Assembly (NCBI GenBank): GCA_033648345.1
Contig: GCA_033648345.1_4121.1
From: a phage
Strand: one strand, 5' to 3'
DNA length: 64,000 bases
Made by a program: the position numbers and the translations under genes
The notes under the pieces: model-generated
Databases searched by the model: none
What the model saw: the letters and a program-made list of their open reading frames with translations, nothing else
Told to the model about the DNA's origin: nothing
Shown here: positions 20,238-50,890 of the stretch, one piece after another
Position numbering within the stretch: the first letter of the stretch is position 1
How the letters are laid out: each line of letters opens with the position of its first letter

Positions 20238-20696
20238 ATGGACGTATTAGCTACTCAATTCAAACGCAACGCAGAAGAACGTGAAGGTTACCTAAGTATC
20301 AGTGAAGTGGTTGAAGATGGATTCAAGCAGTACATTTTCAACAGTGCAATTAAACTGAAGCCAACAAAAGATTCACCGGACCGCAGCTTCACCAAGTGGA
20401 TTGCATTCTGGGAAGATTCACCAATTGCAATCGAAATGACTGTCATCACTACAGTACTGGAAACTGGTTACATCAAAGCAATTGTAGTTGATAAGAAAGT
20501 TCGTACTCTTGATGAAATCGGGACATACCCAGCACGTAACTCTAAAGTATTTGGGTGTTTAGTTGATGGTAAGTTTATGATTGAAAAAGATGCTAAGAAC
20601 TATGTAATTGATAAACTACAAACCAGTGCTACTAAACAGGAAGTCGTAGACCAGAACGCAGTGGATGCTATTAAAAAGGCATGGGGACTGAAATAA
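20238..20696 (+). CDS. hypothetical protein
   Basis: ORF in track with AGAGGA RBS. Confidence 0.5.
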   Translation: MDVLATQFKRNAEEREGYLSISEVVEDGFKQYIFNSAIKLKPTKDSPDRSFTKWIAFWEDSPIAIEMTVITTVLETGYIKAIVVDKKVRTLDEIGTYPARNSKVFGCLVDGKFMIEKDAKNYVIDKLQTSATKQEVVDQNAVDAIKKAWGLK

Positions 20697-21118
20697 TGTT
20701 CACACTTAGCAATGCAAAGTATCTATTTCTTATTGCTATTATTGGTTGGGTGATGGCTCCAGTGCTTAATGCACTGGGGTTTCCAGACGGACATAAACTT
20801 GTAAATGTTTCAGGTGTAATCCAGGGCATTTCATGGTATTCATTGATTATATTTTCTATATGTATTCATACATTTGCACGTGATTGCCGCCGTCTGCTTT
20901 TTGTTAAAGTATTCGGTACTAAGAGATATAGTTTTGTGTTTACATTTATTTTAATACCATGTATTATCTATGCTTTTGTATTTGATTACTATACTTATCT
21001 GTGGGTGTGTGGTTCTATGTTTGTTATGTTGGAATATACAAGAACTGTTCAAAACTCATATGCTGATGAGTATTATGATCTTGAAGTTAAACGAAAATTA
21101 ACGGAGCTAAACAAATGA
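20696..21118 (+). CDS. integral membrane protein
   Basis: track ORF trimmed to ATG 20696; multiple hydrophobic helices. Confidence 0.5.
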   Translation: MFTLSNAKYLFLIAIIGWVMAPVLNALGFPDGHKLVNVSGVIQGISWYSLIIFSICIHTFARDCRRLLFVKVFGTKRYSFVFTFILIPCIIYAFVFDYYTYLWVCGSMFVMLEYTRTVQNSYADEYYDLEVKRKLTELNK

Positions 21119-21540
21119 GGGGATACAATAAGATTTGTATTTTTGTATTTTTAGTTTGTGCAATCAATACATTTGGATATTACTGTACTGAAAACAACAT
21201 TTCATATGGTTTAAATCCTTTGTGGTTTACAATTGCCAATGTAGCACAAATTGGTATTGCTGTTATGTCTGCACTTATGTTCTGTCCAATTGTCACTATG
21301 GATACTGATCATGAAAGGCTGGGATTTATCCGTGATACTGGAGACGAACCTTACAGTAGATTGATTGTGTTGTATCCATTTATTGTTATTTTAGGTACTA
21401 ACATCCAACTTGGGTCTTTATCTAATAGTGTTACTTCAGCAGCCATTACAGTCTTTGCATTCACATTTTTTATGGTACACAAATCAGTACTCAAATGGCA
21501 CATCACCAAAATGGCAGAGAAAGGTACGGAAAACAGTTGA
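21115..21540 (+). CDS. integral membrane protein
   Basis: ORF in track; hydrophobic helices. Confidence 0.5.
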   Translation: MRGYNKICIFVFLVCAINTFGYYCTENNISYGLNPLWFTIANVAQIGIAVMSALMFCPIVTMDTDHERLGFIRDTGDEPYSRLIVLYPFIVILGTNIQLGSLSNSVTSAAITVFAFTFFMVHKSVLKWHITKMAEKGTENS

Positions 21541-29578: not shown

Positions 29579-30241
29579 ATGTTAGTTAATCTTAATTTCA
29601 TCACTTCTCCTGATTGGGCATTGCGTGGTGTTTCTTTGAACTTTAAAGAAACTAATTTCGACTACATTGGTGATTGTACTTTAGTTAATGCTACATTTGA
29701 TCCTCATCATCCTTTTTGGGCTGAGATTCATGATCCTAATGTAAACAATAGTACATCTGTTATGACTATTGTACAGACGAAACATACAGGTATCCTCGCA
29801 GGTTACAGACCTGAACATGCCATCGAGCACTTCACTGATTATGATGTAGTAGATGCATATCCAATGATCCATGAAGATGGAAGTTTATACACGTCAGAAG
29901 ACTTCCGTGCTATCTTTAATAGTACTGATAACATTCTACCAAGTGGTCGTCCACGCCCTGAGTCTTATCTTATGCACCCGTCTTATGGTGTAGCAGATAC
30001 GCTTGAACAGATTTTGACGAAGTACAAGAACCTTATTGAAGGTCCAGAAGAAATTGTCTTGTGCTATCATCCAGTACTGAAGTCTGACCAACCAGAGAGT
30101 GGTGGGTGGCGTTGGCATAAGAATGGTGAGTACATCGGTACTAAGCGTAGTAAAGAACGCTTTGAGTACTTGTATGATGAGCCAGATGTTGAGGTTGTTT
30201 TATGTTATAATTTTCTTAAGGTGAAAAAGAAATGTATCTAG
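29579..30241 (+). CDS. hypothetical protein (220 aa)
   Basis: ORF in track after GAGGA. Confidence 0.5.
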   Translation: MLVNLNFITSPDWALRGVSLNFKETNFDYIGDCTLVNATFDPHHPFWAEIHDPNVNNSTSVMTIVQTKHTGILAGYRPEHAIEHFTDYDVVDAYPMIHEDGSLYTSEDFRAIFNSTDNILPSGRPRPESYLMHPSYGVADTLEQILTKYKNLIEGPEEIVLCYHPVLKSDQPESGGWRWHKNGEYIGTKRSKERFEYLYDEPDVEVVLCYNFLKVKKKCI

Positions 30242-30474
30242 TATTGAGTTTTGTAGTTGCATTATTGTTTATGTTCTACCCTACACTAGTAGCAGTAGCC
30301 ACTAAACGAAAGCTGGTGGATATCACTACTGTATTCTTGCTAAACGTGGCACTCGTTCTAGTGTCTATTATCATTCCCGTGAACTTTACGGTTATTGACA
30401 TGGCATCTGTATTACTATTCGTCTTCAGTTATCTTATGCTTATTGAAGAAAAACCTGTTGACAAACGTTTGTAG
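30232..30474 (+). CDS. small membrane protein
   Basis: two hydrophobic helices. Confidence 0.45.
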   Translation: MYLVLSFVVALLFMFYPTLVAVATKRKLVDITTVFLLNVALVLVSIIIPVNFTVIDMASVLLFVFSYLMLIEEKPVDKRL

Positions 30475-30532: not shown

Positions 30533-30859
30533 ATGTTATCAGTTCTAATTTCAATTCCTGCTCTAATTCTGTTATGGGTTATGGTTTTCGAATTCTTCAT
30601 TAAAGACGAAACCGAGCGTGATGAGTTTCGTGAGTTGTTTATGTTAGACTCACCCATTGCACGAATCTTCTTCGTTGTAGTACTTATTTCAGTACTGTCA
30701 TGGTTAGTAAGTTTTGTATTACCAATTGGACCATTTGTTTCAATTATGAATTTAGTTGAGAACATTGTTGGTATTGTATGGTTTACTAATGCATTGTTTG
30801 CTGGTAAAGTTTCCATTTGGTTTGATATCTTGAAAGATAAACTAACTAGTAAGAAGTAA
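30533..30859 (+). CDS. small membrane protein
   Basis: ORF in track after GAGGATA; hydrophobic helices. Confidence 0.45.
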   Translation: MLSVLISIPALILLWVMVFEFFIKDETERDEFRELFMLDSPIARIFFVVVLISVLSWLVSFVLPIGPFVSIMNLVENIVGIVWFTNALFAGKVSIWFDILKDKLTSKK

Positions 30860-31313: not shown

Positions 31314-31697
31314 ATGATAAACGATGTAATGCTTTATGTATTAATTACTCCGATTCTTATTAACTCAGTAATAACTATTTCAATGGCATTATTTGGTATA
31401 GTAGCAATTGTTTATGCGGTAAGTACTGGAAAGTATACTTTAATTAGTAAGGTTGATTCATGGTTCGCATCTGATAGTGTACCATATTCAGCTAGTATGA
31501 TTACGATTGGTATTCTAATCGTTGCATTTACACTGCACTGTATTGGTTTTATTAATACAAGTATTTTTTCAGTTTTTATTGGTCTATCATTATATCCATC
31601 ACTTTGGTACTTGATTTATGTAACCGATGTTTGGTATAATAACTACAAGCAGTACAAAGTGAAGAAATCCATTTTATCCAAAGGAAACAAATCATGA
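31314..31697 (+). CDS. integral membrane protein
   Basis: multiple hydrophobic helices. Confidence 0.45.
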   Translation: MINDVMLYVLITPILINSVITISMALFGIVAIVYAVSTGKYTLISKVDSWFASDSVPYSASMITIGILIVAFTLHCIGFINTSIFSVFIGLSLYPSLWYLIYVTDVWYNNYKQYKVKKSILSKGNKS

Positions 31698-34004: not shown

Positions 34005-34241
34005 ATGGAAACTATAATCATCATATGTGCGTTGTTTGCATTTTTGGTAATGTGGTCACCAACATTCATTGCATATAAAATGAAAAATAAAAATGCAGAA
34101 GCAATTATGTACGTAAACTTATGTTGCATACTAACTTATGGAATACTTTTATTCTTTACTGAATTTACATTAATCCCAGTAGTAGTTTGTTCATCAATGT
34201 TTATTTGGTTGTTTCTGCTTTATGAATCTATTAAAAAATAA
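34005..34241 (+). CDS. small membrane protein
   Basis: ORF in track after GGAGG; hydrophobic. Confidence 0.4.
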   Translation: METIIIICALFAFLVMWSPTFIAYKMKNKNAEAIMYVNLCCILTYGILLFFTEFTLIPVVVCSSMFIWLFLLYESIKK

Positions 34242-35362: not shown

Positions 35363-35436
35363 CTTAAGTGTCTGTAGAAATAAACAGCACATGAAGTATA
35401 AATATTAAAGTAATTTATCTCTTTAAGGAGTATGAA

Positions 35437-35860: not shown

Positions 35861-35906
35861 ATTTTCATTGCTAGAACATAAACCAACTGAGGTAATCATA
35901 TCAAAC

Positions 35907-36164
35907 ATGGCAGAAACATTATCACTATATGCATTAGTACTGTTATTTGTCGGATTTCTTCCCGCACTTATTACAGCCATTCGTGTTGTTAAACATGAAG
36001 CTGCGTTGATTGTATGTAGTATTGGGGCGAACATTCTATTGTATTTCTTTTTAACAAATACTATTGTACTGTTTGCTTTCTTTATCATGATTCTGTGGGT
36101 ACTTGTAATTCTCGGATTCTTCATTTGGTCATTGGTTGATCCTAAGAAAAAACAGGAGAAGTGA
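35907..36164 (+). CDS. small membrane protein
   Basis: track ORF (TTG start) trimmed to ATG 35907; hydrophobic. Confidence 0.45.
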   Translation: MAETLSLYALVLLFVGFLPALITAIRVVKHEAALIVCSIGANILLYFFLTNTIVLFAFFIMILWVLVILGFFIWSLVDPKKKQEK

Positions 36165-38624: not shown

Positions 38625-38876
38625 ATGTTTAAATATGTTTTATTTTCACTTGTATTGTTTACTGATATAGTTTATAGTACTGAATACCAGTGCTCCATTG
38701 CTAGACAGGAGTTTAGAAACGGTGAGTTCTATACCAAGTCTTACACTAGAGGATTGGTACATGACAATAATAAAACTATAGGGTTCAATGCATTTGATAA
38801 CAAAGATCGATATACGTCTGGAATACTATCTGAACGTAAGTCGGATATACTAGGTATCGAGCGTGAATTCCGGTGA
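38625..38876 (+). CDS. secreted small protein
   Basis: ORF in track; hydrophobic leader. Confidence 0.4.
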   Translation: MFKYVLFSLVLFTDIVYSTEYQCSIARQEFRNGEFYTKSYTRGLVHDNNKTIGFNAFDNKDRYTSGILSERKSDILGIEREFR

Positions 38877-39237
38877 CACGGTTGCAATGTGTAATGATAT
38901 TGAGAGTACTAAGAAAGTATATACTAATGGTGAAAATACTTTTAGATTCCACAATCTTACTACCAATGAAAGTTTATACTTCTACAACTGTAAAGAGTTC
39001 ATTAAACCTGTGGATAACTCATGTGATATGCCGGAGCCAAAAGCTGCTGTATGTGAGGAACCACAATCCAAAGCTGACAAAGATTCAAAAGATAAGAAAG
39101 ACAAAGCTGACAAATCGGATAAAAAAGAAAACAAAAAGAAAGCTAAAGATGATAAAGATAAAAAGTCCCCTAAGCCAAATCCATTTGAAAAGCCAAAGAA
39201 TGAAAAGCCAAAACCAGACATGACATGTAAAATATAA
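38863..39237 (+). CDS. hypothetical protein with Lys/Asp-rich low-complexity tail
   Basis: ORF in track; KKDKADKSDKKENKKKAKDDKDKK; competing overlapping frame. Confidence 0.4.
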   Translation: MNSGDTVAMCNDIESTKKVYTNGENTFRFHNLTTNESLYFYNCKEFIKPVDNSCDMPEPKAAVCEEPQSKADKDSKDKKDKADKSDKKENKKKAKDDKDKKSPKPNPFEKPKNEKPKPDMTCKI

Positions 39238-39242
39238 AAGAA

Positions 39243-39277
39243 AAGGGTTGACTTCGGTCGGCCCTTTTTGCTATAAT
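39243..39277 (+). promoter_or_regulatory. PeSL cassette
   Basis: gggttgac-TTCG-gtcggccc then tataat. Confidence 0.7.
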
Positions 39278-39303: not shown

Positions 39304-39717
39304 ATGTTAAAAGTTATTTTCCGTTCTATCAGTTCATTACTTCTTATGATTAGTTCAGTTTGTTATGCAAATGAAGTATCTGATTTATTTGAGAAGAATT
39401 ACCCAACCGCACAAGAGATGGGTGTTTTAAAATGCAAGCTAACTTCGTACAACATCATCGGCAGTAAACTTGTACTGGAACATGAACGTAGTACACCAAT
39501 CCCTCTAGTAGAAGAAGGCAGTACCTTTAGCTTCAAGTACGGGGTGAATGTAACATCTGGTGTAATGAACAATGTTGATGCAGAGACTGGTTCAACATGG
39601 AGTACTAGCGGTAAAGATGTGTTTCATCGTATGCGTGAAAATGGTAAACTGAAGTACGTATATGAAAGTTCATTCATGAAACGTGTATTCATTATAAAAA
39701 ATTGTGTACCAGCATAA
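39304..39717 (+). CDS. secreted protein (signal peptide)
   Basis: leader ...LLMISSVCYA; GGAGG RBS. Confidence 0.5.
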   Translation: MLKVIFRSISSLLLMISSVCYANEVSDLFEKNYPTAQEMGVLKCKLTSYNIIGSKLVLEHERSTPIPLVEEGSTFSFKYGVNVTSGVMNNVDAETGSTWSTSGKDVFHRMRENGKLKYVYESSFMKRVFIIKNCVPA

Positions 39718-40014: not shown

Positions 40015-40353
40015 ATGGAACAACATTTTGAATTAATTAATAAGGTATCATTTTATGTAGTATCGTTAATTTGGGTGTATTACATGTTTTGTTACATTAT
40101 TGCATTCTTCCGATACACAACCTTGTATCAACGCATATACTACGATGCACCCATTTCATTTATGATGTTCTGTGCATGTACGTGGGGGATAATTGAAGCA
40201 CTGGTATGTGGATATAGTACTGACGAATTAAATCTCGTATCGGTGTTGACATTACTAACAATTGCTACTATGATAGCTACTGTTCCGATATTTTTGCTCT
40301 TTAAACTGCTTCATCGCATCGATGAGTGGCGTAATAAAATCCCTGAAAAGTAA
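40015..40353 (+). CDS. small membrane protein, tandem-array family (C-terminal R-x-K-I/M-P-E/N-K/R tail)
   Basis: hydrophobic helices; C-terminus RNKIPEK; paralogous to 45394-47833 array. Confidence 0.55.
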   Translation: MEQHFELINKVSFYVVSLIWVYYMFCYIIAFFRYTTLYQRIYYDAPISFMMFCACTWGIIEALVCGYSTDELNLVSVLTLLTIATMIATVPIFLLFKLLHRIDEWRNKIPEK

Positions 40354-40362
40354 GGATTGATA

Positions 40363-40704
40363 ATGATTTTTTACACTAATGCGTTTGCTTATGCCGTTGC
40401 ATCAATCTACATTGTGTACTTCTTATTTGGTGGAGTACTGTACTTCTTTAAGTACAAAACATTGTTTAACCGAATGTATCCAAATCATCCAATTGTAGTA
40501 GTACTTTTGATTATTTCTGTTGCTCACATCATTGTAGAAACAATAATGGGTATCAGTGCAGTACATTACAGTCTAGGTACTATTGTAATTATTACTATGA
40601 TCATCGCATACATTTTAGTAATGGGTTTTGGTTTATTTGGAAATGTAGCAATGAAATTGTATAATCGAATCAAAACATTACGTGATAATCTACCGGAGCG
40701 TTGA
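40363..40704 (+). CDS. small membrane protein, tandem-array family
   Basis: C-terminus RDNLPER; coupled. Confidence 0.55.
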   Translation: MIFYTNAFAYAVASIYIVYFLFGGVLYFFKYKTLFNRMYPNHPIVVVLLIISVAHIIVETIMGISAVHYSLGTIVIITMIIAYILVMGFGLFGNVAMKLYNRIKTLRDNLPER

Positions 40705-40705
40705 G

Positions 40706-41050
40706 ATGTATAATTTAAATTTAATATCATATATCATAACAACACTGTTTACTTTCTATGCCTTTGTTGGTATACTCCTACTGTACTTTAAATTTTATAA
40801 ACTTTTTGATCGTTTTTATCCGTCATTAGAACATGAATTCTTATTAGTGATGTACATATGTCTAACGTTTATGTCTACATTTTTCACTGCATCTGATGGT
40901 ATCATTGGTATTAAAGCTGAAGAACCAAATGGGAGTACGCTTGTTGCCTTTATTCTGGTAGGATTTTTCAGTACTTATATTACCTTTATTTCAGGATGTA
41001 CCGTGATTGATTATCTTGTGAAATTACGAGATAAAATGCCAAATCGATAG
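40706..41050 (+). CDS. small membrane protein, tandem-array family
   Basis: C-terminus RDKMPNR. Confidence 0.55.
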   Translation: MYNLNLISYIITTLFTFYAFVGILLLYFKFYKLFDRFYPSLEHEFLLVMYICLTFMSTFFTASDGIIGIKAEEPNGSTLVAFILVGFFSTYITFISGCTVIDYLVKLRDKMPNR

Positions 41051-41059
41051 GGGATTGCT

Positions 41060-41317
41060 ATGTTTGCATTGCGTAATAAAAATACAAAAGAGATTCTGTG
41101 TATCTCAACAGTATGGGATTGTGCAGGAAGTGAAATGATTCTCGAAGAAGGTTCAGGTGATTGTGTTTATGTTGTTCAGGATCGTCGCGAACTGGAATCA
41201 TTACTTGACGAATTTAATGCTGGTGGAAATCCTAAAAGTACTCAATTCCCTGAGATCAGGAATCCAGCACCACCAGGCTCTTATGAAATTCTACAACTGT
41301 GGGAGATGGATAAGTAA
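41060..41317 (+). CDS. hypothetical small protein
   Basis: ORF in track. Confidence 0.4.
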   Translation: MFALRNKNTKEILCISTVWDCAGSEMILEEGSGDCVYVVQDRRELESLLDEFNAGGNPKSTQFPEIRNPAPPGSYEILQLWEMDK

Positions 41318-41697
41318 TGCGTCAAATGCACAAAGTAACCGAGCTAAACAAGCGTCTGATTAAACAATCAATGTTTGAGGATAAAGAGTCTTACTATAAC
41401 TTCAAACGTGCTGTAGAGGCTGCTATCCACATTCAGAAGCTTAAAGATAGTGGATGTATTATTCTCGAAAATGGTTCTGACGTTGTTACTGATGACTTCA
41501 GTGTAGCGTTTGATGTTTCACCTGATGGTTCGCTATCAATGCCACGCTTAGGGACTGGTGACATGACTGTGTGGGTAGGTTTCACTATGGGGAATGTACC
41601 AGGCACGGTGTATGTAGATGATGCTGAGTTGAAAGAAAGCTTCAAAAACTTATCGCATCTTGAACCACAATACGCACATGAAATGAATTTATTTTGA
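41317..41697 (+). CDS. hypothetical protein
   Basis: ORF in track, ATGA-coupled. Confidence 0.45.
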   Translation: MRQMHKVTELNKRLIKQSMFEDKESYYNFKRAVEAAIHIQKLKDSGCIILENGSDVVTDDFSVAFDVSPDGSLSMPRLGTGDMTVWVGFTMGNVPGTVYVDDAELKESFKNLSHLEPQYAHEMNLF

Positions 41698-41698
41698 G

Positions 41699-41726
41699 TT
41701 GACAAACTCATTCAGTACTGTATAAT
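41699..41726 (+). promoter_or_regulatory. early-type promoter TTGACA-N16-(TG)TATAAT with CAGTACTG spacer
   Basis: ttgacaaactcattcagtactgtataat. Confidence 0.6.
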
Positions 41727-41773
41727 GTTTATCAAGGGGATGAACTTCTCATCCCCACAATCGAGGAATTGTC

Positions 41774-42328
41774 ATGATTACTTTTAAGAAAACTGCTAAC
41801 CACATCCATGAGATCTACATTAACGGTCACAAAGCTGGCCTTCTTCGTTTACTCGCCCATCATCCGAATATTACCGTATCTGATAATGAACCTAAAGATT
41901 GGCGTGTATTTTTCTTTGGAAAGTACAGTGATTTTCAAGTATCAAACCTGAAGAACATTCGTTCAGTATGCACGTTAACTGAAATTAAAGAAAAGTTAAC
42001 CAAAGCATTGAAAACTAATCCAGATAGTGTTCTTCCACCTGATAACTTTGTAGAGAAAGGATATGCCTTAGCTCATTTCAAAGATGGTACTATTCAATCT
42101 ATCAGTACTGAATATGAATATCAATGGACTGAGTACTTCACTTATGGATCGCGTAATACATTGATGGCTTCACGTAGTAAATTGGAAGAAGTACTGACTC
42201 GTATGAATGAACGCGAGCGTCAATTTTATGACAAACCAGAAATGTGGAGTTCAACTTACATTGACCGTATTGACTATGTTATTATGACTCCAATCTTTGA
42301 CACTGCTTACTATGATTCTTTGAAATAA
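41774..42328 (+). CDS. hypothetical protein
   Basis: ORF in track after GAGGAA. Confidence 0.5.
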   Translation: MITFKKTANHIHEIYINGHKAGLLRLLAHHPNITVSDNEPKDWRVFFFGKYSDFQVSNLKNIRSVCTLTEIKEKLTKALKTNPDSVLPPDNFVEKGYALAHFKDGTIQSISTEYEYQWTEYFTYGSRNTLMASRSKLEEVLTRMNERERQFYDKPEMWSSTYIDRIDYVIMTPIFDTAYYDSLK

Positions 42329-42544
42329 GGATAACTTATATGAAACTACGTACTCGTAATCGACTGATGGATGCACTGTACCATGAACAGCTTTCACTGA
42401 ATGAAGTGAAGCGTCAGTTAATGTACACATATCTGTTACCCGCTCGCATTGCAAAACAACGTGCTAAAGAATTGCTGAAAGAAGCAATCGAGTACTGGGA
42501 ATCTGATTCGTACTAATTGTCACGTTAATTAAGTGAGGCGATAA

Positions 42545-42796
42545 ATGAAAATTTTATTAGTTCTAATACTACTAATTGTTTTACCATTTACGTTAGTATC
42601 CCCTGAACTTGCATGGAATGTGTTTGTGTACTTACTATGTACTATTGTAGTAAATGGTATCTTGTTCTTAGTTCTATTCATAAATGGAATAGGACACGGT
42701 GGAGGATGGACCAGTACTGCTGATATTGTACATAAAACCACTATGTCTTTATTTGTAGTGTGGAATTTATTCTGGACTTGGTTTGTGTTCTTCTAA
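42545..42796 (+). CDS. small membrane protein
   Basis: hydrophobic throughout. Confidence 0.4.
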   Translation: MKILLVLILLIVLPFTLVSPELAWNVFVYLLCTIVVNGILFLVLFINGIGHGGGWTSTADIVHKTTMSLFVVWNLFWTWFVFF

Positions 42797-42805
42797 TTAA
42801 AAAAT

Positions 42806-43177
42806 ATGAATATAGATTTGAAAGGTGCAACCCGAACTGTCATACTCATTGGGGAATATGCTATCAAGATTCCAACCTTTAAAAGTTGGAAGCTATTCTT
42901 AACAGGGATGATAGCTAACCTCAATGAACGTTCTTGGATGCAGTACTCCAAGCGTAGTGATAGTGGTATCTGCCCTACGTTGTGGTCATCATGTACTGGA
43001 CTAGTAACTGTACAGAAACGTTGTAAGCCAGTACAACATAGGGGTTTATTTTGGGTGGAGTTGTGTGCTTTAGCATTGGATTCAGAGTTGAGTACTGACT
43101 TCTTCTATTCAGATGCGAAGCCAGAAAACTTTGGGTATCTGGGTGGTAAGTTAGTTAAACTTGATTATGGAGATTAA
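42806..43177 (+). CDS. minimal protein-kinase-like protein (123 aa)
   Basis: YAIKIP (VAIK-like), DAKPENFG (HRDLKPEN-like catalytic loop) and VKLDYGD (DFG-like) at kinase-appropriate spacing; no C-lobe. Confidence 0.45.
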   Translation: MNIDLKGATRTVILIGEYAIKIPTFKSWKLFLTGMIANLNERSWMQYSKRSDSGICPTLWSSCTGLVTVQKRCKPVQHRGLFWVELCALALDSELSTDFFYSDAKPENFGYLGGKLVKLDYGD

Positions 43178-43178
43178 T

Positions 43179-43601
43179 ATGTACGCACTGTATAATAAAG
43201 AAAAGAAACAATTTGCTAAGGTTGAAAAATCGATTGATACATTTGGCATGTTTAAGTACTGTATTGTGACGGACCCATATGCTAACTTGTATTACGTTCT
43301 TGATGACGTATCAGTACTGCAACGATTGCTTGAACGTTCCAAAAGCCAATGTCAAGGTATCCATGATGGTTCAACTTATGAAACACCTGAGTGTTCCTAT
43401 GGCTATCTGGATGGGTATGAGATTGTGAAGTTGGGTGCATTGTTGATTAATGAGGAATTTATGAAACTATGTACATGTGATGATTGTGGTAAACAAATAC
43501 CAGAAAGTGAAGTATATCGTAATGAAACTGCATTCGGTGATGATGGTGACTACTGTCAGGATTGTTTTTACGAGAACCATTATGATTTTGGCGATGATTA
43601 A
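43179..43601 (+). CDS. hypothetical protein with Cys-rich C-terminus (possible zinc ribbon)
   Basis: track ORF trimmed to ATG 43179; CTCDDCGK...DYCQDCF. Confidence 0.45.
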   Translation: MYALYNKEKKQFAKVEKSIDTFGMFKYCIVTDPYANLYYVLDDVSVLQRLLERSKSQCQGIHDGSTYETPECSYGYLDGYEIVKLGALLINEEFMKLCTCDDCGKQIPESEVYRNETAFGDDGDYCQDCFYENHYDFGDD

Positions 43602-43605
43602 AACA

Positions 43606-43640
43606 AAGGGTTGACTTCGGTCAGCCCTTTTTGTTATAAT
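43606..43640 (+). promoter_or_regulatory. PeSL cassette upstream of denV
   Basis: gggttgac-TTCG-gtcagccc then tataat. Confidence 0.7.
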
Positions 43641-43668
43641 CATTTCATCGAAACGAGAGGATGAATAC

Positions 43669-44145
43669 ATGACACGCATTAACTTAGTACACGTTAAAGA
43701 ACTTGCTGACCAACATCTGATGGCTGAATATCGTGAACTCCCACGTGTATTTGGTGCTGTACAAAAACACGTTCAAGCACGTAAGCGTGTACGTGATTTC
43801 AAAATTAACAGTACTTACCTGTTAGGTTCAGGTCATGTAACATTCTTCTACAACAAGTTATTGTACTTACAGAAGCGTCATATTGAAATTGTTAACGAAT
43901 GTTTGCGTCGTGGTATGAAGATTCAAAACATTGAATTAAACGACATTAGCGGCTTCCCTGCTGAGTTTTGTAATGACTACGTACCATCGGAGTCAGAGAT
44001 TAAAATGTCTCGTGAGCGTTTGATTGAGAAGCTACAGATGAAGCCTACGTGGTATAAGTTTACTGATGTTGAATGTCCACAGTACGTTAAAGATATGTTG
44101 AATGAAATTGAAGAACAAATCAAAGATGAAATGAATAACTATTAA
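43669..44145 (+). CDS. denV: DenV-type pyrimidine-dimer DNA glycosylase (T4 endonuclease V family)
   Basis: MTRINL...[21 protein letters not shown]...KRVRDFKI...GHVTFFY...RPTWYK closely matches the T4 endonuclease V sequence as I recall it. Confidence 0.93.
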
Positions 44146-44150
44146 AGGAA

Positions 44151-44185
44151 AAGGTTGACTTCGGTCAGCCATTTTTGTTATTATA
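44151..44185 (+). promoter_or_regulatory. PeSL cassette (weak -10)
   Basis: ggttgac-TTCG-gtcagcc. Confidence 0.6.
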
Positions 44186-44214
44186 GCTCTATCGAAACGA
44201 ATGAGGATTAAGTA

Positions 44215-44472
44215 ATGATTAAATTAAAATTTGAAGGTATGCGTGATGGGAATGGTAACCTAATCATTACACGAGGTACTAAAGCAGTACGATGCTTAGA
44301 AGAACATGGTATTGAATTTACTATTCCATACGATGATATCAGGATTAAAGAGGATACGGTACTGGAATTGCCACTCACTACATTTGAAGAATTGAATGCA
44401 TTTTGTCAAACATATAATGCACTAATCACTTTCGATGAACGTAATTGTGTTATTGAATTTTTACAACACTGA
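44215..44472 (+). CDS. hypothetical protein
   Basis: ORF in track after GAGGA. Confidence 0.45.
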   Translation: MIKLKFEGMRDGNGNLIITRGTKAVRCLEEHGIEFTIPYDDIRIKEDTVLELPLTTFEELNAFCQTYNALITFDERNCVIEFLQH

Positions 44473-44488
44473 TGATTAAGTAATAAAG

Positions 44489-44524
44489 AAAGGGTTGACA
44501 CTAGTCAGCCCTTTTTGCTATAAT
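44489..44524 (+). promoter_or_regulatory. PeSL cassette variant (loop ACTA, -35 TTGACA)
   Basis: gggttgac-acta-gtcagccc then tataat. Confidence 0.65.
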
Positions 44525-44552
44525 CATTTCATCAACTCAAGAGGATAAAGAC

Positions 44553-45326
44553 ATGACCCGTACAGAGAAAGCAATCCAAATCGAAAAGAACTTCAACAGC
44601 ATGATGGCAGCTTTGGAATGTTTACTTGATACCCAAGCTAATTCAATCAATTCCCTGATTGTATCTGGTAAAGGTGGTGTTGGTAAAACTTACAACGTTG
44701 ACCAGCGTTTACAGAAAGCTGATGATAACTTTGAAATCGACTACAAAAAGATCAGCGGTAAAGTAACCACTATGGGTTTGTACGAAGCACTGTATCGTTC
44801 ACGTCATGCCGCTTCAGTACTGTTACTTGATGACGTTGATATCTTCTCTGACGAGACTAATATTGATTTGCTTAAAGCTGTGTTGGATACGTCAGAGAAG
44901 CGTGTAGTTTCTTACGCGACTTCTGCTAAGTACCTGGAACAGCAGGGTATCCCTAAGCAGTTTGAATTCCGTGGTAAAGTAATCTTTCTGACTAACAAAA
45001 ACCTGTCACAGATTGCTAAAGGTAAAAGCAGCTTAGCACCACACATCGATGCACTGATCACTCGTAGTATCTTTGTTGACCTGCAACTGTTCACCAACGA
45101 AGAAGTGATGATTCACATTGAGAACATCATGAACAAAACTAACATCCTTGAAAACAATGGTGTTAACAAAAATGGTTGTAAAGCAATCCTGAATTGGATG
45201 CTGAACAACGAAGAACGTTTGCGTAGTCCATCACTGCGTATGCCAGTACTGATCGCTGGTCTGTATAATAAATTCCCATACGATTGGGAATCAATGGCAG
45301 AGAATATGTTCCTTGAGAAAATTTAA
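44553..45326 (+). CDS. P-loop NTPase with deviant Walker A (GKGGVGKT)
   Basis: SGKGGVGKT motif and LLLDDVD Walker-B-like segment; function unknown. Confidence 0.55.
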   Translation: MTRTEKAIQIEKNFNSMMAALECLLDTQANSINSLIVSGKGGVGKTYNVDQRLQKADDNFEIDYKKISGKVTTMGLYEALYRSRHAASVLLLDDVDIFSDETNIDLLKAVLDTSEKRVVSYATSAKYLEQQGIPKQFEFRGKVIFLTNKNLSQIAKGKSSLAPHIDALITRSIFVDLQLFTNEEVMIHIENIMNKTNILENNGVNKNGCKAILNWMLNNEERLRSPSLRMPVLIAGLYNKFPYDWESMAENMFLEKI

Positions 45327-45336
45327 TTACATGTAT

Positions 45337-45367
45337 TGACAGCACTACACTATGGTAGTACTATAAC
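45337..45367 (+). promoter_or_regulatory. putative promoter for membrane-protein array (TTGACA ... TATAAC, long spacer)
   Basis: ttgacagcactacactatggtagtactataac. Confidence 0.3.
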
Positions 45368-45393
45368 TTAATATTCACCACCGGAGATACGAT

Positions 45394-45732
45394 ATGCTTG
45401 AGTTTTTTAATTCAGATACAATGCTTAGTATTACTTTGATTTATCTGTTTGGTTTTTTCTTTTATCATGCACTAGTTGTAGTACTATGGTATTTTAAAAA
45501 GAAAATCGTTTTCAAACTGTATCCTGATGGAAACATTTCACTACTTCTTTTCACTATTATCCAAGGTATGTTTGCAATTGTTGGTCTTATCGCACACTTA
45601 ATTTATTGTGCTAATCCACAGTTGAACTCAATATCACAATATATTGTATTCCTTGGATTACTAATTTGGGTGCTGATATACTTGTTTAATATCATCATTA
45701 ATGGTCGAGCAAAAATTCGTGGGGACTTCTAA
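45394..45732 (+). CDS. small membrane protein, tandem-array family member 1
   Basis: hydrophobic helices; YFKKKIVFKLYP motif. Confidence 0.55.
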   Translation: MLEFFNSDTMLSITLIYLFGFFFYHALVVVLWYFKKKIVFKLYPDGNISLLLFTIIQGMFAIVGLIAHLIYCANPQLNSISQYIVFLGLLIWVLIYLFNIIINGRAKIRGDF

Positions 45733-46079
45733 TGTTTGAATCTTATCTTGAGTTTTTAAAGAGTAGTTCTGTTGCACATTCAATTGCAGGGATTATTCTA
45801 ACAGGTTATGTAACATTTTGGGTAGTTATGTTTCTAGGATGGTATTTTAAACGACAATTCTATAAGCGTAATGGTGAAGATTTTATGAATTCTGTTATTA
45901 ATCAATCGTTGTTTGCATCAACATTGATAGCATGTATTGTAGCAACACTCACAGGAAAGGTACTGCCAGCATTCTCCGCAGTTTACGGTACATTGGGTAT
46001 GATATGTGTAGTTTTTTACTTGATCATTAAACTTTGTTGTGTTATGATTGACCTTCGAAACAAGATACCGGAGGAATGA
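45732..46079 (+). CDS. small membrane protein, tandem-array family member 2
   Basis: C-terminus RNKIPEE; ATGA-type coupling. Confidence 0.55.
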   Translation: MFESYLEFLKSSSVAHSIAGIILTGYVTFWVVMFLGWYFKRQFYKRNGEDFMNSVINQSLFASTLIACIVATLTGKVLPAFSAVYGTLGMICVVFYLIIKLCCVMIDLRNKIPEE

Positions 46080-46414
46080 TGGAATATTTTTTACACTTAC
46101 TGCCGTGGTATATGAAAGTTAGTACTATGTACTATATTCTTAGTGCTGGATTCTACTTTCTGATGTGGTTCTTCAAACGACCAATTTCAGTATTCATCTC
46201 TGATAACATGCTGCAATTAAAATTACACGCATGGTTTTTTATGGCGATGTTTATGCCTATTATTCACTACTCAATGATTAGTAGAGGTTTACGTTCTAAT
46301 GGTGAACCAATTATATTAGTATTCTATTGGGGTTCAACTATTGCATATGTAAGTTTGTTGTTGATCCCAGCCGTTCATAAATTACGTGCTAAAGTTCCTG
46401 ATGCGAGGTACTAA
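46076..46414 (+). CDS. small membrane protein, tandem-array family member 3
   Basis: C-terminus RAKVPDARY. Confidence 0.55.
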   Translation: MMEYFLHLLPWYMKVSTMYYILSAGFYFLMWFFKRPISVFISDNMLQLKLHAWFFMAMFMPIIHYSMISRGLRSNGEPIILVFYWGSTIAYVSLLLIPAVHKLRAKVPDARY

Positions 46415-46728
46415 TGGATATCGTAACATTGATTTACACGCTTTATTCATTCTATTTTATTATGTGTTGGGTTGGATTTTTATTTGTATTGAAGATGTTT
46501 GATTATGTTGAAAAACAGATAAAAGAATTTTGTATTCCTTTTATTGGGTCAACCATAATTAGTATTACTTGTTTGTATTATTTGGTATGTGATCCACCTG
46601 TTAATACAGCAATGATTGACTTCATGTTATTACCAACAACTGTTATTTTTTTATGTAGTCTGATGCCACCGATTAGTCGTGGGCTAACCGAATTTAGACG
46701 CAATCAAAAGCGTAAACGAGGGATGTGA
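46414..46728 (+). CDS. small membrane protein, tandem-array family member 4
   Basis: hydrophobic; coupled. Confidence 0.5.
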   Translation: MDIVTLIYTLYSFYFIMCWVGFLFVLKMFDYVEKQIKEFCIPFIGSTIISITCLYYLVCDPPVNTAMIDFMLLPTTVIFLCSLMPPISRGLTEFRRNQKRKRGM

Positions 46729-47096
46729 TGGAAATTGCACTTATTATATTAACTGCTATGTTGTTTATTAGTACAATTGTTATTATTGGCAAGTTCTTCT
46801 GTGTATCCTTCTTGGAAACCGTATACGATGAAATTGCTGATGATTATGAATTACATGCGGGATTTTTTACTACGTATTGGATTAGTTTATTACTACTTAT
46901 CACTGTATGGATTTTACATATATTCAAATGGGGTATGGTAGATGGTGATCCAGTACTGGCAATTATCTGTGTAGTGTTTGGTCTACTCGGTGGTGCTGTC
47001 CATAATCTGATGGTAATTTGGCAAACCGTACAATATGTATTAGTTCCACATTTTCAGAGAATGCATCAAAGCATCAAATACCGCAAACGAGGATAA
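46725..47096 (+). CDS. small membrane protein, tandem-array family member 5
   Basis: hydrophobic; coupled. Confidence 0.5.
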   Translation: MMEIALIILTAMLFISTIVIIGKFFCVSFLETVYDEIADDYELHAGFFTTYWISLLLLITVWILHIFKWGMVDGDPVLAIICVVFGLLGGAVHNLMVIWQTVQYVLVPHFQRMHQSIKYRKRG

Positions 47097-47097
47097 C

Positions 47098-47460
47098 ATG
47101 AATAATATTGAATTATCTTTTATTGGTCAATTAATGGTAATGGCGTATACATTTATCTTCTCACTGAATGCATTCGTGTGCATTGGGAAGTACTTCCATA
47201 AGCGACCATTATCAAATATATATGATGTAATACAAAGGAGATATAGTCCAGCATATACTGTGTTGAGTACAGCATTCAATTTTGGTTTTATTCTAATGCT
47301 GGTTGCATTATTAACATCGAGTTTAAATTTTATAACATTTGGTATTATGGTATGTTCACTAACACTGAGTGTGGTTATTCTCTGTGCATCCGTTGAGTTG
47401 ATGGCGTGGATGTATTATAAGATTTCCGAAATCCATGACCGTTTAGGTAAGAGGAACTAA
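47098..47460 (+). CDS. small membrane protein, tandem-array family member 6
   Basis: hydrophobic; coupled. Confidence 0.5.
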   Translation: MNNIELSFIGQLMVMAYTFIFSLNAFVCIGKYFHKRPLSNIYDVIQRRYSPAYTVLSTAFNFGFILMLVALLTSSLNFITFGIMVCSLTLSVVILCASVELMAWMYYKISEIHDRLGKRN

Positions 47461-47461
47461 A

Positions 47462-47833
47462 ATGAGTTATCGTGAAATATTTTCGATCATTACTATTATT
47501 GTTTTTAGTTTAGGTTCTTTGGTGTGGTTATTGTATTACTTCTGTGTAACCCCAGTATATAATATGCTAAATTCAGTACGCTCTGATGTTGGTATTGTTT
47601 CTTTTATTATCTTCATGGCATATTATATGCTAAGTATCACAGGTTTGGTTTTGGTTGTTATCTTTGACCTTGGACCGAATCAAGATGGTATGGAGGTGTG
47701 GGAATTGATAACGATGTTTGCATGTATGATACCTGCATTTGGTGTATGTGCTGGTGTATTTTATGGGTTATGTAAAGGTGTGAACTACTTAAAAAATATC
47801 CACAATACTATTCGTAAAAAACGTATGTTATAA
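47462..47833 (+). CDS. small membrane protein, tandem-array family member 7
   Basis: hydrophobic; coupled. Confidence 0.5.
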   Translation: MSYREIFSIITIIVFSLGSLVWLLYYFCVTPVYNMLNSVRSDVGIVSFIIFMAYYMLSITGLVLVVIFDLGPNQDGMEVWELITMFACMIPAFGVCAGVFYGLCKGVNYLKNIHNTIRKKRML

Positions 47834-47834
47834 T

Positions 47835-47870
47835 AAAAATCCAGTACTATTATAGTACTGGATTAATTTT
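47835..47870. terminator. bidirectional terminator between convergent arrays
   Basis: ccagtac-N7-gtactgg hairpin flanked by A- and T-runs. Confidence 0.6.
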
Positions 47871-48993
47871 AATTATCTAAGCCACCAATTACACTGAACT
47901 GTGTGGTAACGTCTGAATTATTATCTATGTAAGTTCTTCTACCAACATAATATAGTTGTCCTTTAGCTTGAATAAAAGTTACGGTCCCTGTATTGAATGT
48001 TATAATATCATTGTATGTAATGTCAGGTGGTAGTGCTGCTGATAACGCAGTAACTTTACTTAATGCAGCACTAGCACTACCATTTATACCAGCAGCAATA
48101 CTACCAGTACCATAGAACTTATTATCTTTACCAATGAATACGTTGGCTGATGCTTGTGTAGCTGATGTTATTGCCTTACCAATTTGGAATGCGGTTCCTA
48201 TGGTGTATGGTGTGCTCCTGGCAGCGTCTATGCTTTGTGTATATCCATCCCCTAGCTGACCATTAACTTTGTCACCACATGAGTATAGAGTACCATTGTG
48301 GCTGTATATGATCCCACGGTTAGAGAAGCTAACAGCTTCTGCATTAGTCCATACTGGTGCGGTGTATGAGTTTACACGACTAGCGGTAGTTCCTAGACCT
48401 AGTATACCATATGTGTTATCACCACATCCAAACCATTGTCCAGAACTGTTTTGATAGAACACTGAACGTTCTGTTGATTCCATGCGTACAGCATCCACAG
48501 CACCACTTTTAACGAACGAAGTTGATGAGGATGTAGTACCAGTACCCAATGCACCATAAGTGTTTGTACCAATCGCATATATTGATCCTAGTGGTGTCAT
48601 AACACGTATGCAGTTATATCCCAATTGAACTTTACATTCAAATAGGTTGTCCCATATTTCAGGAACAGCAGAAAATAAATTTGTAATTTCGAACCATGAT
48701 GTTGTCGAACCAGTTAATCCTATACTGCTTTTGTTTCCTAAAATGAAAACAGTTTTGTCCTTCTTAATTATCCATGATGATAGGAAACCTATCTCACAGC
48801 TATGAACATTTGATTCTATTTGGGTAATATAATACTTAACTGTGTTATCACCCATGAATGCCGCAGCACCGGATGCAAAAAGGTTTCCAGTTTGTTTATT
48901 TAAAATGTAGTTATTGTTTCCATATACACTAACATCATAAGAACTTTCTTGTTTTTCGTTCCCATAATCAAATAACAATACGAAAGGTAACAT
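47869..48993 (-). CDS. RCC1-like repeat beta-propeller protein, array member 1
   Basis: MLPFVLLFDYGN N-terminus; repeats IYAIGTNTYGALGTGTT / WFGCGDNTYGILGLGTT / LYSCGDKVNGQLGDGYT. Confidence 0.75.
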   Translation of the reverse strand: MLPFVLLFDYGNEKQESSYDVSVYGNNNYILNKQTGNLFASGAAAFMGDNTVKYYITQIESNVHSCEIGFLSSWIIKKDKTVFILGNKSSIGLTGSTTSWFEITNLFSAVPEIWDNLFECKVQLGYNCIRVMTPLGSIYAIGTNTYGALGTGTTSSSTSFVKSGAVDAVRMESTERSVFYQNSSGQWFGCGDNTYGILGLGTTASRVNSYTAPVWTNAEAVSFSNRGIIYSHNGTLYSCGDKVNGQLGDGYTQSIDAARSTPYTIGTAFQIGKAITSATQASANVFIGKDNKFYGTGSIAAGINGSASAALSKVTALSAALPPDITYNDIITFNTGTVTFIQAKGQLYYVGRRTYIDNNSDVTTQFSVIGGLDN

Positions 48994-49753: not shown

Positions 49754-50890
49754 TTAAACTGGTGGAGAATTATATGGCTCAAATTTATAAGTTGTCGTAG
49801 CAGTACCAGCAATGGCGTTGTTAGCTAGTATGTACATAGTCCTGTAGTCGATTACCACTACAGTAATACTACCACCAAAAGCATAGTCTGTTATGTTATT
49901 AGTGTTGAATGGTAAATTAGATGAACTGGTCCATGTATTAGCTGTTGTGCTATTTGTACCATTGGAATAACCTACACTAGATGCACCAGTTGTCCATAAG
50001 TTTCCATCATTGAACAAGGAGACATGGTTAGTTGTATATGATTTATTAGGTATAGAACTATCAATTGGTGTATTCCAAACTTTAGTAACCCATGTTGTAA
50101 CTGCTGTATTATTAGTAACGCCATTACCTAATGAACCATTTATTGGTATACCTCTTATATAAGAAGTGTTAGTACTAGGGTCAACATATCCAAATGTATA
50201 TGTATCAAATGCAAATTGAAAACAATCAGAACTCGGTAATGTGTACAGTAATGTATATGAAGACGTGTTTATTGATGAATTTGTACCGTTCACGCCTTGG
50301 TATAAAATACCACTAGCCAATATTTGATTATTATTTTTTGTTATAGTGTTCATTGATGGATATGTTTTCACATCACGCACATCATTAGTCACATATGTTT
50401 GTGTTGATAATGCAACGTTACTACCATTACCTATAACCCCTGTATTTGCACCACTCCCATAAAGTGAACCATCATTCAAAAGAACCATTGTAACATTACC
50501 ATTTCCCGTAATTGTTTTAATATTACTAACATCCACCGCAGCAAATACAGTTGATGTTAAATCAGTGAAACGTGTATAATGTGATGTTGTGCCATTGATT
50601 GGTGTCGCAAAACCAGAATACAATATTCTATTTTCTTTGGTAATAAGGAATGTTCCAGTAACACCATTTGAATGGATATCAACAATATTATCTCCCATTA
50701 ATACCCAATCACTTACGAATGTTGTTGTACCAGTACCTAACCCATGTGTAGTGTTGTAACCACGTCCATACACTCTACCATCACTGAGTAATGTTACCAC
50801 ACATTGACCACCACCACCAAGGATAACTTTTTGGATAGTACTCTTTACTTTTATATTCCCGTACTTAACCATTCTTGCAAAAGGTAACAT
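49754..50890 (-). CDS. RCC1-like repeat protein, array member 2
   Basis: MLPFARMVKYGN; repeats YGRGYNTTHGLGTGTT / LYGSGANTGVIGNGSN. Confidence 0.75.
   Translation of the reverse strand: MLPFARMVKYGNIKVKSTIQKVILGGGGQCVVTLLSDGRVYGRGYNTTHGLGTGTTTFVSDWVLMGDNIVDIHSNGVTGTFLITKENRILYSGFATPINGTTSHYTRFTDLTSTVFAAVDVSNIKTITGNGNVTMVLLNDGSLYGSGANTGVIGNGSNVALSTQTYVTNDVRDVKTYPSMNTITKNNNQILASGILYQGVNGTNSSINTSSYTLLYTLPSSDCFQFAFDTYTFGYVDPSTNTSYIRGIPINGSLGNGVTNNTAVTTWVTKVWNTPIDSSIPNKSYTTNHVSLFNDGNLWTTGASSVGYSNGTNSTTANTWTSSSNLPFNTNNITDYAFGGSITVVVIDYRTMYILANNAIAGTATTTYKFEPYNSPPV

Follow-up and report, generated by a model that had tools for sequence, protein, structure and literature searches.

What are the ten short genes that lie between positions 40,015 and 47,833 of a 64,000-nucleotide stretch of phage DNA (contig GCA_033648345.1_4121.1 of assembly GCA_033648345.1, referred to as the window), do they form one family, and what might they do for the phage? 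The window belongs to an Asteriusvirus-like jumbo phage of Escherichia coli (121Q/PBECO4 group), has a G+C content of about 35% and changes its coding strand from plus to minus near 48 kb. Over the 7.8-kb array region it shares 97% DNA identity with Escherichia phages CMSTMSU, EC.P1 and Ecwhy_1, and 86–89% with other 350-kb coliphages of the genus Asteriusvirus. A first, sequence-only reading had described a tandem family of small multi-pass membrane proteins at this locus, and homology tests together with helix predictions bear this out. As judged by profile comparison, the ten open reading frames (ORFs) are true paralogues of one old, lineage-restricted family, related beyond mere composition.

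All ten ORFs were confirmed on the plus strand where they had been placed, three at 40015–41050 (array 1) and seven at 45394–47833 (array 2), and encode proteins of 104–123 amino acids (aa). They are listed here as m1 to m10 with their motif type and subtype (G1 to G10), their matches in PHROGs and, in bits, their score against a profile built from all other groups (leave-one-group-out test, see below).

40015..40353, plus strand: m1, 112 aa, type A (FFR...WRNKIPEK), subtype G1; phrog_19285; 45.4 bits
40363..40704, plus strand: m2, 113 aa, type A, subtype G2; BLASTP to m1 2.6e-12; 38.1 bits
40706..41050, plus strand: m3, 114 aa, type A, subtype G3; BLASTP to m2 1e-7; 40.2 bits
45394..45732, plus strand: m4, 112 aa, type A variant (WYFKKK...GRAKIRGDF), subtype G4; phrog_19454; 28.5 bits
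45732..46079, plus strand: m5, 115 aa, type A (WYFKR...LRNKIPEE), subtype G5; phrog_19046, with weaker matches to phrog_16874 'membrane protein' and phrog_19454; 30.0 bits
46076..46414, plus strand: m6, 112 aa, type A (WFFKR...LRAKVPDARY), subtype G6; the weakest family link; 11.8 bits
46414..46728, plus strand: m7, 104 aa, intermediate type (FLFVLK...FRRNQKRKRGM), subtype G7; phrog_33258; 27.2 bits
46728..47096, plus strand: m8, 122 aa, type B (GKFFCV...MHQSIKYRKRG), subtype G8; phrog_26405; 34.0 bits
47098..47460, plus strand: m9, 120 aa, type B (GKYFHK...IHDRLGKRN), subtype G9; no match in the PHROGs search; 30.7 bits
47462..47833, plus strand: m10, 123 aa, type B (YYFCV...IHNTIRKKRML), subtype G10; phrog_27618, weakly phrog_26405; 47.7 bits

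The start of m2 was corrected from TTG 40357 to ATG 40363 as the most likely codon (113 aa), which has an AAGGA ribosome-binding site overlapping the m1 stop, and the start of m3 from GTG 40682 to ATG 40706 (114 aa), which is preceded by GGAG 8 nt upstream and agrees with the annotation of 121Q gp209. For m8 the start is probably ATG 46728, GTG 46725 being possible too. Translational coupling of the array genes is plausible, because every junction within each array is either an overlap of 1–4 nt or a gap of 1–9 nt. The two clusters are separated by 4.3 kb in Asteriusvirus and belong to separate transcription units.

Pairwise BLASTP detected significant similarity only between m1 and m2 (3e-12), m2 and m3 (1e-7) and m4 and m5 (1e-4). 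Orthologue groups were built from the window and from phages 121Q, UE-S1 and A4, and their profiles were compared group against group. This gave strong links among G1, G2 and G3, between G5 and G6 (hhalign E 9.4e-6) and between G8 and G10 (3.5e-5), together with bridging links at E 2e-4 to 5e-4 (G1–G5, G1–G10, G2–G4, G4–G5 and G8–G9), all of which outscored the best of 55 reversed-sequence controls (22.8). When each window member was left out in turn and scored with a profile from all other groups, nine of the ten reached 27–48 bits and m6 reached 11.8 bits; the maxima were 10.5 bits for reversed copies and 14.6 bits for 200 shuffles. At the profile level, m6 is tied to the family through its link to m5 (G5–G6, E 9e-6). 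Eight other small multi-pass ORFs of the same window, used as a negative control, did not exceed 2.2 bits or an hhalign probability of 6%. These ORFs, a possible source of the upper figure in an earlier estimate of 10 to 13 members, were rejected by their profile scores, and a family profile found no eleventh member in the 64 kb, so that ten of the estimated members stand and the others do not. T4 NrdC.9, NrdC.8 and NrdC.7 were likewise rejected as members on comparison. The sequence-only reading had named a lack of shared motifs beyond hydrophobic composition as the finding that would speak against a family; since the profile scores exceed those of the shuffled, reversed and in-window membrane-protein controls, the alignment reveals more than common hydrophobicity. 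Moreover, the ratio of nonsynonymous to synonymous substitution rates (dN/dS), calculated against 121Q and UE-S1, was 0.10–0.56 in all ten genes, which indicates that they are real and under purifying selection.

Three transmembrane (TM) segments were assigned to each protein, both by Kyte-Doolittle hydropathy and in AlphaFold2 models, in place of the two or three helices proposed before; in m6 a strict hydropathy cut-off was passed by one segment only. The model of m1 (predicted local distance difference test score, pLDDT, 83.6; helices 2–31, 35–41, 46–65 and 74–108) and that of m8 (pLDDT 95, predicted template-modelling score 0.80; helices 2–23, 27–38, 40–66 and 76–121) have the same four-helix layout, consisting of TM1, a short cytoplasmic helix, TM2, a periplasmic turn and a long helix formed by TM3 and the tail. 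A BFVD model of a 120-aa protein of 121Q, which would be the orthologue of m9, superimposed on the m1 model with a template-modelling score of 0.66 (probability 1.0). Lys and Arg residues were then counted in an alignment of 70 family sequences, on which the conservation and motif figures given below are also based. The mean count was 7.3 in loop 1 plus the tail vs 0.7 in the N-tail plus loop 2, and inside exceeded outside in 70 of the 70 sequences; the C-tail averaged 4.9 Lys and Arg and 1.4 Asp and Glu residues. By the positive-inside rule, an N-out/C-in topology is predicted, most plausibly in the inner membrane, with the N-terminus and an acidic loop of about 7 residues facing the periplasm and a loop of about 17 residues with a short helix, as well as the basic C-terminal helix, facing the cytoplasm. 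This topology would place both conserved motifs on the cytoplasmic side.

A single residue, the Phe F32, was invariant in 70/70 sequences; it occupies the second position of [FY]-F, where TM1 ends. The motif core common to all ten window proteins comprises [FY]-F-[KRCH] at the TM1 end, Tyr42 and [RH]-x-x-[IL] in the tail, and all ten show the features by which the superfamily is defined here (100–130 aa, three TM segments, the invariant Phe and a basic [RH]-x-x-[IL] C-tail), position 33 being Val in m7. The most informative columns (F32, F/Y31, residue 33 with C/K/H/R, 28–30, Y42, R/H106, I/L109 and K/R112) are all located at the TM1 end, in loop 1 and in the C-tail, and conservation is lowest in periplasmic loop 2 and in TM3. 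Covariation was seen between residues 33 and 106, Cys or His occurring with His in 37 of the 70 sequences and Lys or Arg with Arg in 22, and on this pairing the members divide into type A (m1–m6; F-F-[KR] ... R-x-K-[IL]-P-E), type B (m8–m10; G-K-[FY]-F-[CH] ... H-x-x-I-x-[KR]-[KR]) and the intermediate m7. The covariation may reflect a contact or a metal half-site, or be a mere two-clade signal. Of the motifs noted in the sequence-only reading, the tails RNKIPEK, RDNLPER, RDKMPNR and RNKIPEE were found in m1, m2, m3 and m5, respectively; the Y-F-K...F-x-R-x-Y-P segment had to be restricted to m1–m4, and four residues, not three, separate its K and F.

A word-indexed search of 5.8 billion proteins returned 25 family clusters, and an exhaustive profile search of 1.84 billion representatives returned 46, all of 89–130 aa and nearly all matched over most of their length. 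The distant members lay on metagenomic contigs of up to about 350–360 kb, and further members matched Salmonella phage Munch and its relatives, Klebsiella phage fENko-Kae01 and Erwinia phage Hallingskeid. As far as these searches reach, the family is confined to RaK2/121Q-like jumbo phages of Enterobacterales. RaK2 carries eight members in the order G5, G5, G4, G6, G7, G8, G10 and G1-like, without G9; its ORF311 is the orthologue of m4 (match to the G4 profile at 5e-12), and ORF312, ORF313 and ORF315 correspond to G6 (6e-22), G7 (3e-18) and G10 (5e-34). Given these orthologues in matching order, the subtypes and the succession in which they stand are older than the separation of Asteriusvirus from Alcyoneusvirus. 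Member counts across the related phages were 10, 11 (3+8, one split), 8 (1+7), 8, about 10, and 2–5. 121Q and UE-S1 each have one extra G4 paralogue, A4 has 1+7 members with one instead of three in cluster 1, and Hallingskeid has about ten, with expansions of G4 and G5. In 121Q the m7 orthologue is split into two ORFs (gp228/gp229, L001 20814–21129), and the orthologue of m9 in Salmonella phage SD-6_S16 (P0023) is truncated and ends in a divergent tail, which could be due to gene decay or to sequencing error. Munch, Hallingskeid and a metagenomic relative have arrays that contain a mini-ORF of 42–43 aa (129 nt; L004 8689–8817, L005 8613–8741 and L010 1817–1945), which is missing from those of the window.

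Between the window and A4, array proteins were 28–65% identical, whereas four genes that lie between the arrays, and likewise denV, encode proteins of 92–99% identity. Synonymous divergence (dS) was 0.1–1.7 in array genes vs 0.05–0.4 in their neighbours, which is more in keeping with long-standing alleles that recombine than with plain acceleration. Orthologues differed at 10% of the sites in TM1, 27% in TM2 and 33% in TM3, and dN/dS was 0.12 in TM1 (0.12–0.15 across TM1, loop 1 and the N-tail), 0.37 in TM2 and 0.32 in TM3.

The timing of expression was approached through the surrounding signals. Within positions 1–45000, 28 sigma-70 promoters with at least 11 of 12 consensus positions were found on the plus strand and none on the minus strand, with 3.5 ± 1.7 expected per strand. 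The signals closest to the arrays are the following.

39246..39277, plus strand: hairpin-plus-promoter cassette (TTGACT-18-TATAAT, 11/12, extended -10; promoter at 39248), heading the unit with array 1
44495..44524, plus strand: perfect sigma-70-type promoter (TTGACA-18-TATAAT), preceding an ATPase gene and array 2
45336..45364, plus strand: weaker promoter-like site (TTGACA-17-TACTAT, 10/12), directly before m4
47838..47864, no strand assigned: perfect 12-bp palindromic hairpin between m10 and a convergent RCC1-like gene, a candidate bidirectional terminator

The presumed promoter function of the cassette at 39246 is drawn from its consensus match. No terminator-like hairpin was found on the plus strand from 44553 to the palindrome at 47838, and the ATPase gene and array 2 would be transcribed together. 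The T4-type late motif TATAAATA occurred once in the 64 kb (35397–35404), away from the arrays, with 11.9 ± 3.4 occurrences expected from shuffles; it is strongly avoided in the window, and none was present within about 4.6 kb of the arrays. Because consensus sigma-70 promoters are dense and late motifs are lacking near the arrays, early transcription of both arrays by unmodified host RNA polymerase is a well-supported prediction. In the related phage CBB, RpoD-like promoters cluster in a region of short ORFs that has been read as early host-takeover genes (PMC5259590); no transcriptome of an Asteriusvirus was found in the literature. The whole plus-strand block (1–45000) looks like an early region served by the unmodified host polymerase. 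A hairpin of 18 nt, GGTTGAC-TTCG-GTCARCC, is present in eight plus-strand copies (24110, 32235, 35829, 36485, 38564, 39246, 43609 and 44153; 0.01 expected by chance). In the copies inspected, its 5' arm holds TTGACT as the -35 element of a TATAAT-like -10 just downstream (e.g. 43605–43640), and the repeat looks like a compact terminator-plus-promoter cassette.

Array 2 has a conserved address, defined by the gene upstream of it.

44553..45326, plus strand: T4 NrdC.10-like P-loop ATPase gene, a conserved neighbour upstream of array 2 that lies outside the family; phrog_1250

The encoded protein is 41% identical to T4 nrdC.10 and has matches in 1310 phage records. The order of NrdC.10 homologue, array and convergent RCC1/WD40-like genes was the same for array 2 of the window, 121Q, A4, Munch, Hallingskeid and the metagenomic contig L010; in RaK2 the array follows the NrdC.10 homologue, and no RCC1-like gene is annotated downstream within the stretch examined. 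Array 1 lies 4.3 kb upstream of this address. At the corresponding site of T4, Pseudomonas phage PA5oct and Xanthomonas phage XaC1 the ATPase gene stands without a membrane-protein array, and the ATPase, which is also found in so many phage records, was therefore rejected as a functional partner and is regarded as a neighbour. Its gene appears mosaic, with protein identities of 98% to UE-S1, 87% to Erwinia phage Hallingskeid and 59% to 121Q and A4; homing-endonuclease genes stand directly upstream of it in 121Q, A4 and Hallingskeid, and none does in the window. On the other side of array 2, RCC1/WD40_RLD-like tandem genes of about 375 aa (47869–48993 and 49754–50890, minus strand) form a second multigene family convergent with the array, which probably continues to the end of the window and has counterparts in tandem in 121Q, Munch, Hallingskeid, XaC1 and one metagenomic contig.

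Several other small ORFs accompany the arrays. A small multi-TM ORF unrelated to the ten (34005–34241) showed a sub-threshold match to the Pfam family Imm_superinfect (E 0.014), similar to that of a Hallingskeid gene annotated as a superinfection immunity protein (E 0.012), and two ORFs with two or three TM segments outside the family (30232–30474 and 35868–36164) resemble it by eye only. Five more small multi-TM ORFs on the coding strand (20681–21118, 21115–21540, 30533–30859, 31314–31697 and 42545–42796) could be assigned to no family and are similar neither to each other nor to the ten, and the last of them is 96–99% conserved in 121Q, UE-S1 and A4. Just upstream of array 1, 38625–38876 and 39304–39717 have N-termini that look like signal peptides by eye, and 38863–39237 is rich in lysine; these three ORFs diverge fast (41–66% identity to 121Q). 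The 123-aa ORF at 42806–43177 (phrog_4301) contains a DAKPENFG segment that recalls a protein-kinase catalytic loop. A T7 gp0.7-like kinase gene precedes array 1 in 121Q, UE-S1, Munch and Hallingskeid and is apparently missing from that place in the window.

The sequence-only reading had not recognised the family, and database searches agree with it. None of the ten had a functional or defence-system match in Pfam (E ≤1), NCBIfam (E ≤0.1) or PADLOC-DB (E ≤0.1), PDB structure searches gave nothing alike, and the structure searches led back to members of the family alone, in PBECO4 and 121Q and, with weak matches, in GAP32 and CBB. We found no paper that describes or tests the family, and a preprint on phiKZ EPI vesicles was set aside, since its subject is unrelated internal head proteins. 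PHROGs matches nine of the ten proteins over their full length at E 1e-46 to 1e-60 (m3 at E 1e-3 only) and distributes these nine over seven families, all of 'unknown function' (19285, 19454, 19046, 27396, 33258, 26405 and 27618). It thus keeps at least seven unrelated families, with m9 in none of them, whereas here they are united in one superfamily that has a fold, a topology and a motif core in common. The sequences themselves are already public, in phage genomes such as 121Q, PBECO4 and RaK2, where they are labelled hypothetical or putative membrane proteins. The advance lies in joining them into one superfamily for which fold, topology, motifs, address and host range are defined.

Four known kinds of system invite comparison. 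Class I holins of the lambda S105 type have three TM segments in an N-out/C-in arrangement, a definition reportedly given by Wang, Smith and Young in 2000. With about 105–125 aa, three TM segments, this topology and a basic cytoplasmic tail, all as predicted for the ten, the likeness is close; unlike holin genes, however, the arrays adjoin no endolysin or spanin gene but the NrdC.10-like ATPase gene, denV, small ORFs and RCC1-like genes, and the ten genes lack a late promoter (a timing read from sequence), are present in many copies and match no holin family. T4 Imm, which blocks DNA injection, and Sp, known reportedly from Lu and Henning's work on T-even exclusion, are also early phage proteins of the host envelope that protect the infected cell, but Imm has 83 aa, two TM segments and a single gene copy, as opposed to 104–123 aa and three TM segments in the ten, and none of the ten matched Pfam PF14373 (Imm_superinfect) at E ≤1; the sole match in the window, below threshold, came from the ORF at 34005–34241. 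Immunity proteins against pore-forming bacteriocins resemble the family in being small integral inner-membrane proteins with three or four TM segments, little extramembrane mass and poor conservation, and their specificity resides within the membrane. The proteins that confer this immunity are poorly conserved and cross the membrane with three helices, as the pyocin S5 immunity protein does, or with four, as do those of the colicin N type (PMC5358913). The ten differ from them in showing no sequence or profile similarity, in being phage-borne in 8–11 copies and in their predicted early expression, and no colicin-like toxin gene was found in the neighbourhood of the arrays. Among the known systems they offer the closest functional parallel, but the likeness concerns mechanism alone. 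Finally, MGF110 of African swine fever virus and the poxvirus host-range families are tandem multigene families of large DNA viruses; they share with the arrays diverged paralogues, gain and loss between strains and a place in a variable early part of the genome, but sequence, host and cell biology are unrelated and the likeness is one of evolutionary mode only.

The explanation that we favour, at a probability of about 35%, is that the paralogues form a battery of intramembrane binders protecting the inner membrane of the infected cell. It is suggested by the finding that nearly the whole protein lies in the bilayer, that TM1 and the cytoplasmic motifs are conserved and that TM2 and TM3 diverge fastest. 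Each paralogue would be a small binder inside the bilayer, in which the common TM1/cytoplasmic core sets insertion, anchoring and orientation and the variable TM2–TM3 face recognises a different membrane-embedded target, and all paralogues together would make up an early-made 'envelope protection battery'. The targets blocked would be the machinery with which superinfecting phages inject their DNA, or bacteriocins or abortive-infection effectors that form pores, an action comparable, by analogy, to that of bacteriocin immunity proteins and T4 Imm. Superinfection exclusion, injection blocking and membrane remodelling, the roles put forward in the sequence-only reading, would fit the predicted inner-membrane location, the early promoters and the restriction to Enterobacterales. 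Several findings weigh against a protective battery. In a coarse test for positive selection, dN/dS stayed below 1 throughout, whether by gene or by region (0.10–0.56). Synonymous divergence is high where divergence is high, mosaic recombination is possible, with homing-endonuclease genes adjoining in 121Q, A4 and Hallingskeid, and the divergence of the arrays may reflect such recombination rather than an arms race. The rapid divergence of TM2 and TM3 may mean no more than that one hydrophobic residue is readily exchanged for another there, and the conserved order of G4–G8 and G10 in RaK2, with the tight coupling, fits fixed, non-redundant subunits at least as well. No relation in sequence or fold to T4 Imm, known exclusion proteins or colicin immunity proteins was detected, and Imm-like proteins may already be encoded elsewhere in the window (the sub-threshold match at 34005–34241).

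Fixed subunits are the core of a possible but less probable alternative, one that the sequence-only reading had not raised, in which the paralogues come together in a single hetero-oligomeric assembly that the phage builds in the inner membrane, for instance a channel, an anchor or a scaffold, with coupling giving a fixed ratio and the cytoplasmic motifs serving as subunit interface or common docking site. Junctions that are all overlaps or gaps of at most 9 nt, the retention of G4, G5, G6, G7, G8 and G10 in largely the same order in RaK2, a phage of another genus, purifying selection on all genes, a conserved core on one protein face, and the type B pairing of Cys/His33 with His106 (37/70), which could be an inter-subunit metal half-site, all argue for such an assembly; the wide variation in member number among related phages (2–5 up to 11), the loss of single members by frameshift in viable phages (121Q gp228/229 and SD-6_S16), the lack of G9 in RaK2 and the division of the Asteriusvirus members between two clusters, which lie 4.3 kb from each other and belong to separate transcription units, do not. 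A bolder form, a machine of the first minutes of infection that RaK2-like jumbo phages need to complete the uptake of their 350-kb genome or to anchor or organise it, and whose subunits are joined on the cytoplasmic face, where the type B Cys/His-His metal half-site may be involved, appears improbable; it would be a virus-made membrane complex for which phages offer no known counterpart. Small bacterial and phage membrane proteins are known to bind and modulate host inner-membrane proteins, and each paralogue could instead inhibit or redirect a different one of these (a transporter, a respiratory or division component, a protease or a sensor kinase), for a metabolic or physiological benefit rather than defence. 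The promoter-rich early context with many short ORFs, whose equivalent in CBB was read as early host takeover, the weak match of m5 to phrog_16874 'membrane protein', which PHROGs files under moron/host takeover, the restriction to Enterobacterales phages and the almost wholly intramembrane proteins are in line with host modulation, yet conserved host targets make an orthologue identity of 28–65% next to neighbours at 92–99% unexpected and the searches point to no target, and we consider this account somewhat doubtful. That the ten are holins, antiholins or lysis-timing proteins akin to lambda S105 is very unlikely, even though size, three TM segments, N-out/C-in topology and a charged C-terminal tail fit class I, related phages have an endolysin with a TM domain at its N-terminus, as reported for signal-arrest-release endolysins (PMC5259590), and no holin was recognised in this analysis: no endolysin gene adjoins the arrays, the nearest promoters are of the sigma-70 consensus with no TATAAATA within about 4.6 kb, no holin family of Pfam matched at E ≤1, the sole holin fold match was insignificant (E 3.4), and 8–11 copies per genome would be unprecedented. 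Least credible of all are chance or decaying hydrophobic ORFs with a purely compositional likeness. Pairwise BLASTP is mostly not significant and m6 is weak in the leave-one-group-out test, which speaks for this reading, but dN/dS of 0.10–0.56 in all ten, orthologues retained across genera, profile scores far above those of shuffled, reversed and in-window multi-TM controls and the pLDDT of 95 for m8 refute it.

As early phage envelope proteins in the form of paralogues, the arrays are a variant of something known and not a new category. RaK2/121Q-like jumbo phages are under development for therapy, and more than 80% of their genes are without an assigned function. At least seven families of 'hypothetical proteins' now become one superfamily with a predicted fold and topology, two motif classes, a fixed address and a restricted host range, and 8–11 genes per genome become testable together. 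If the proteins form a complex, they would constitute a new kind of membrane structure built by a virus. If they are blockers of DNA injection, bacteriocins or pore-forming effectors, as favoured here, they would represent a new class of phage protection or anti-defence that works inside the bilayer, with a bearing on the design of phage cocktails through exclusion between phages.

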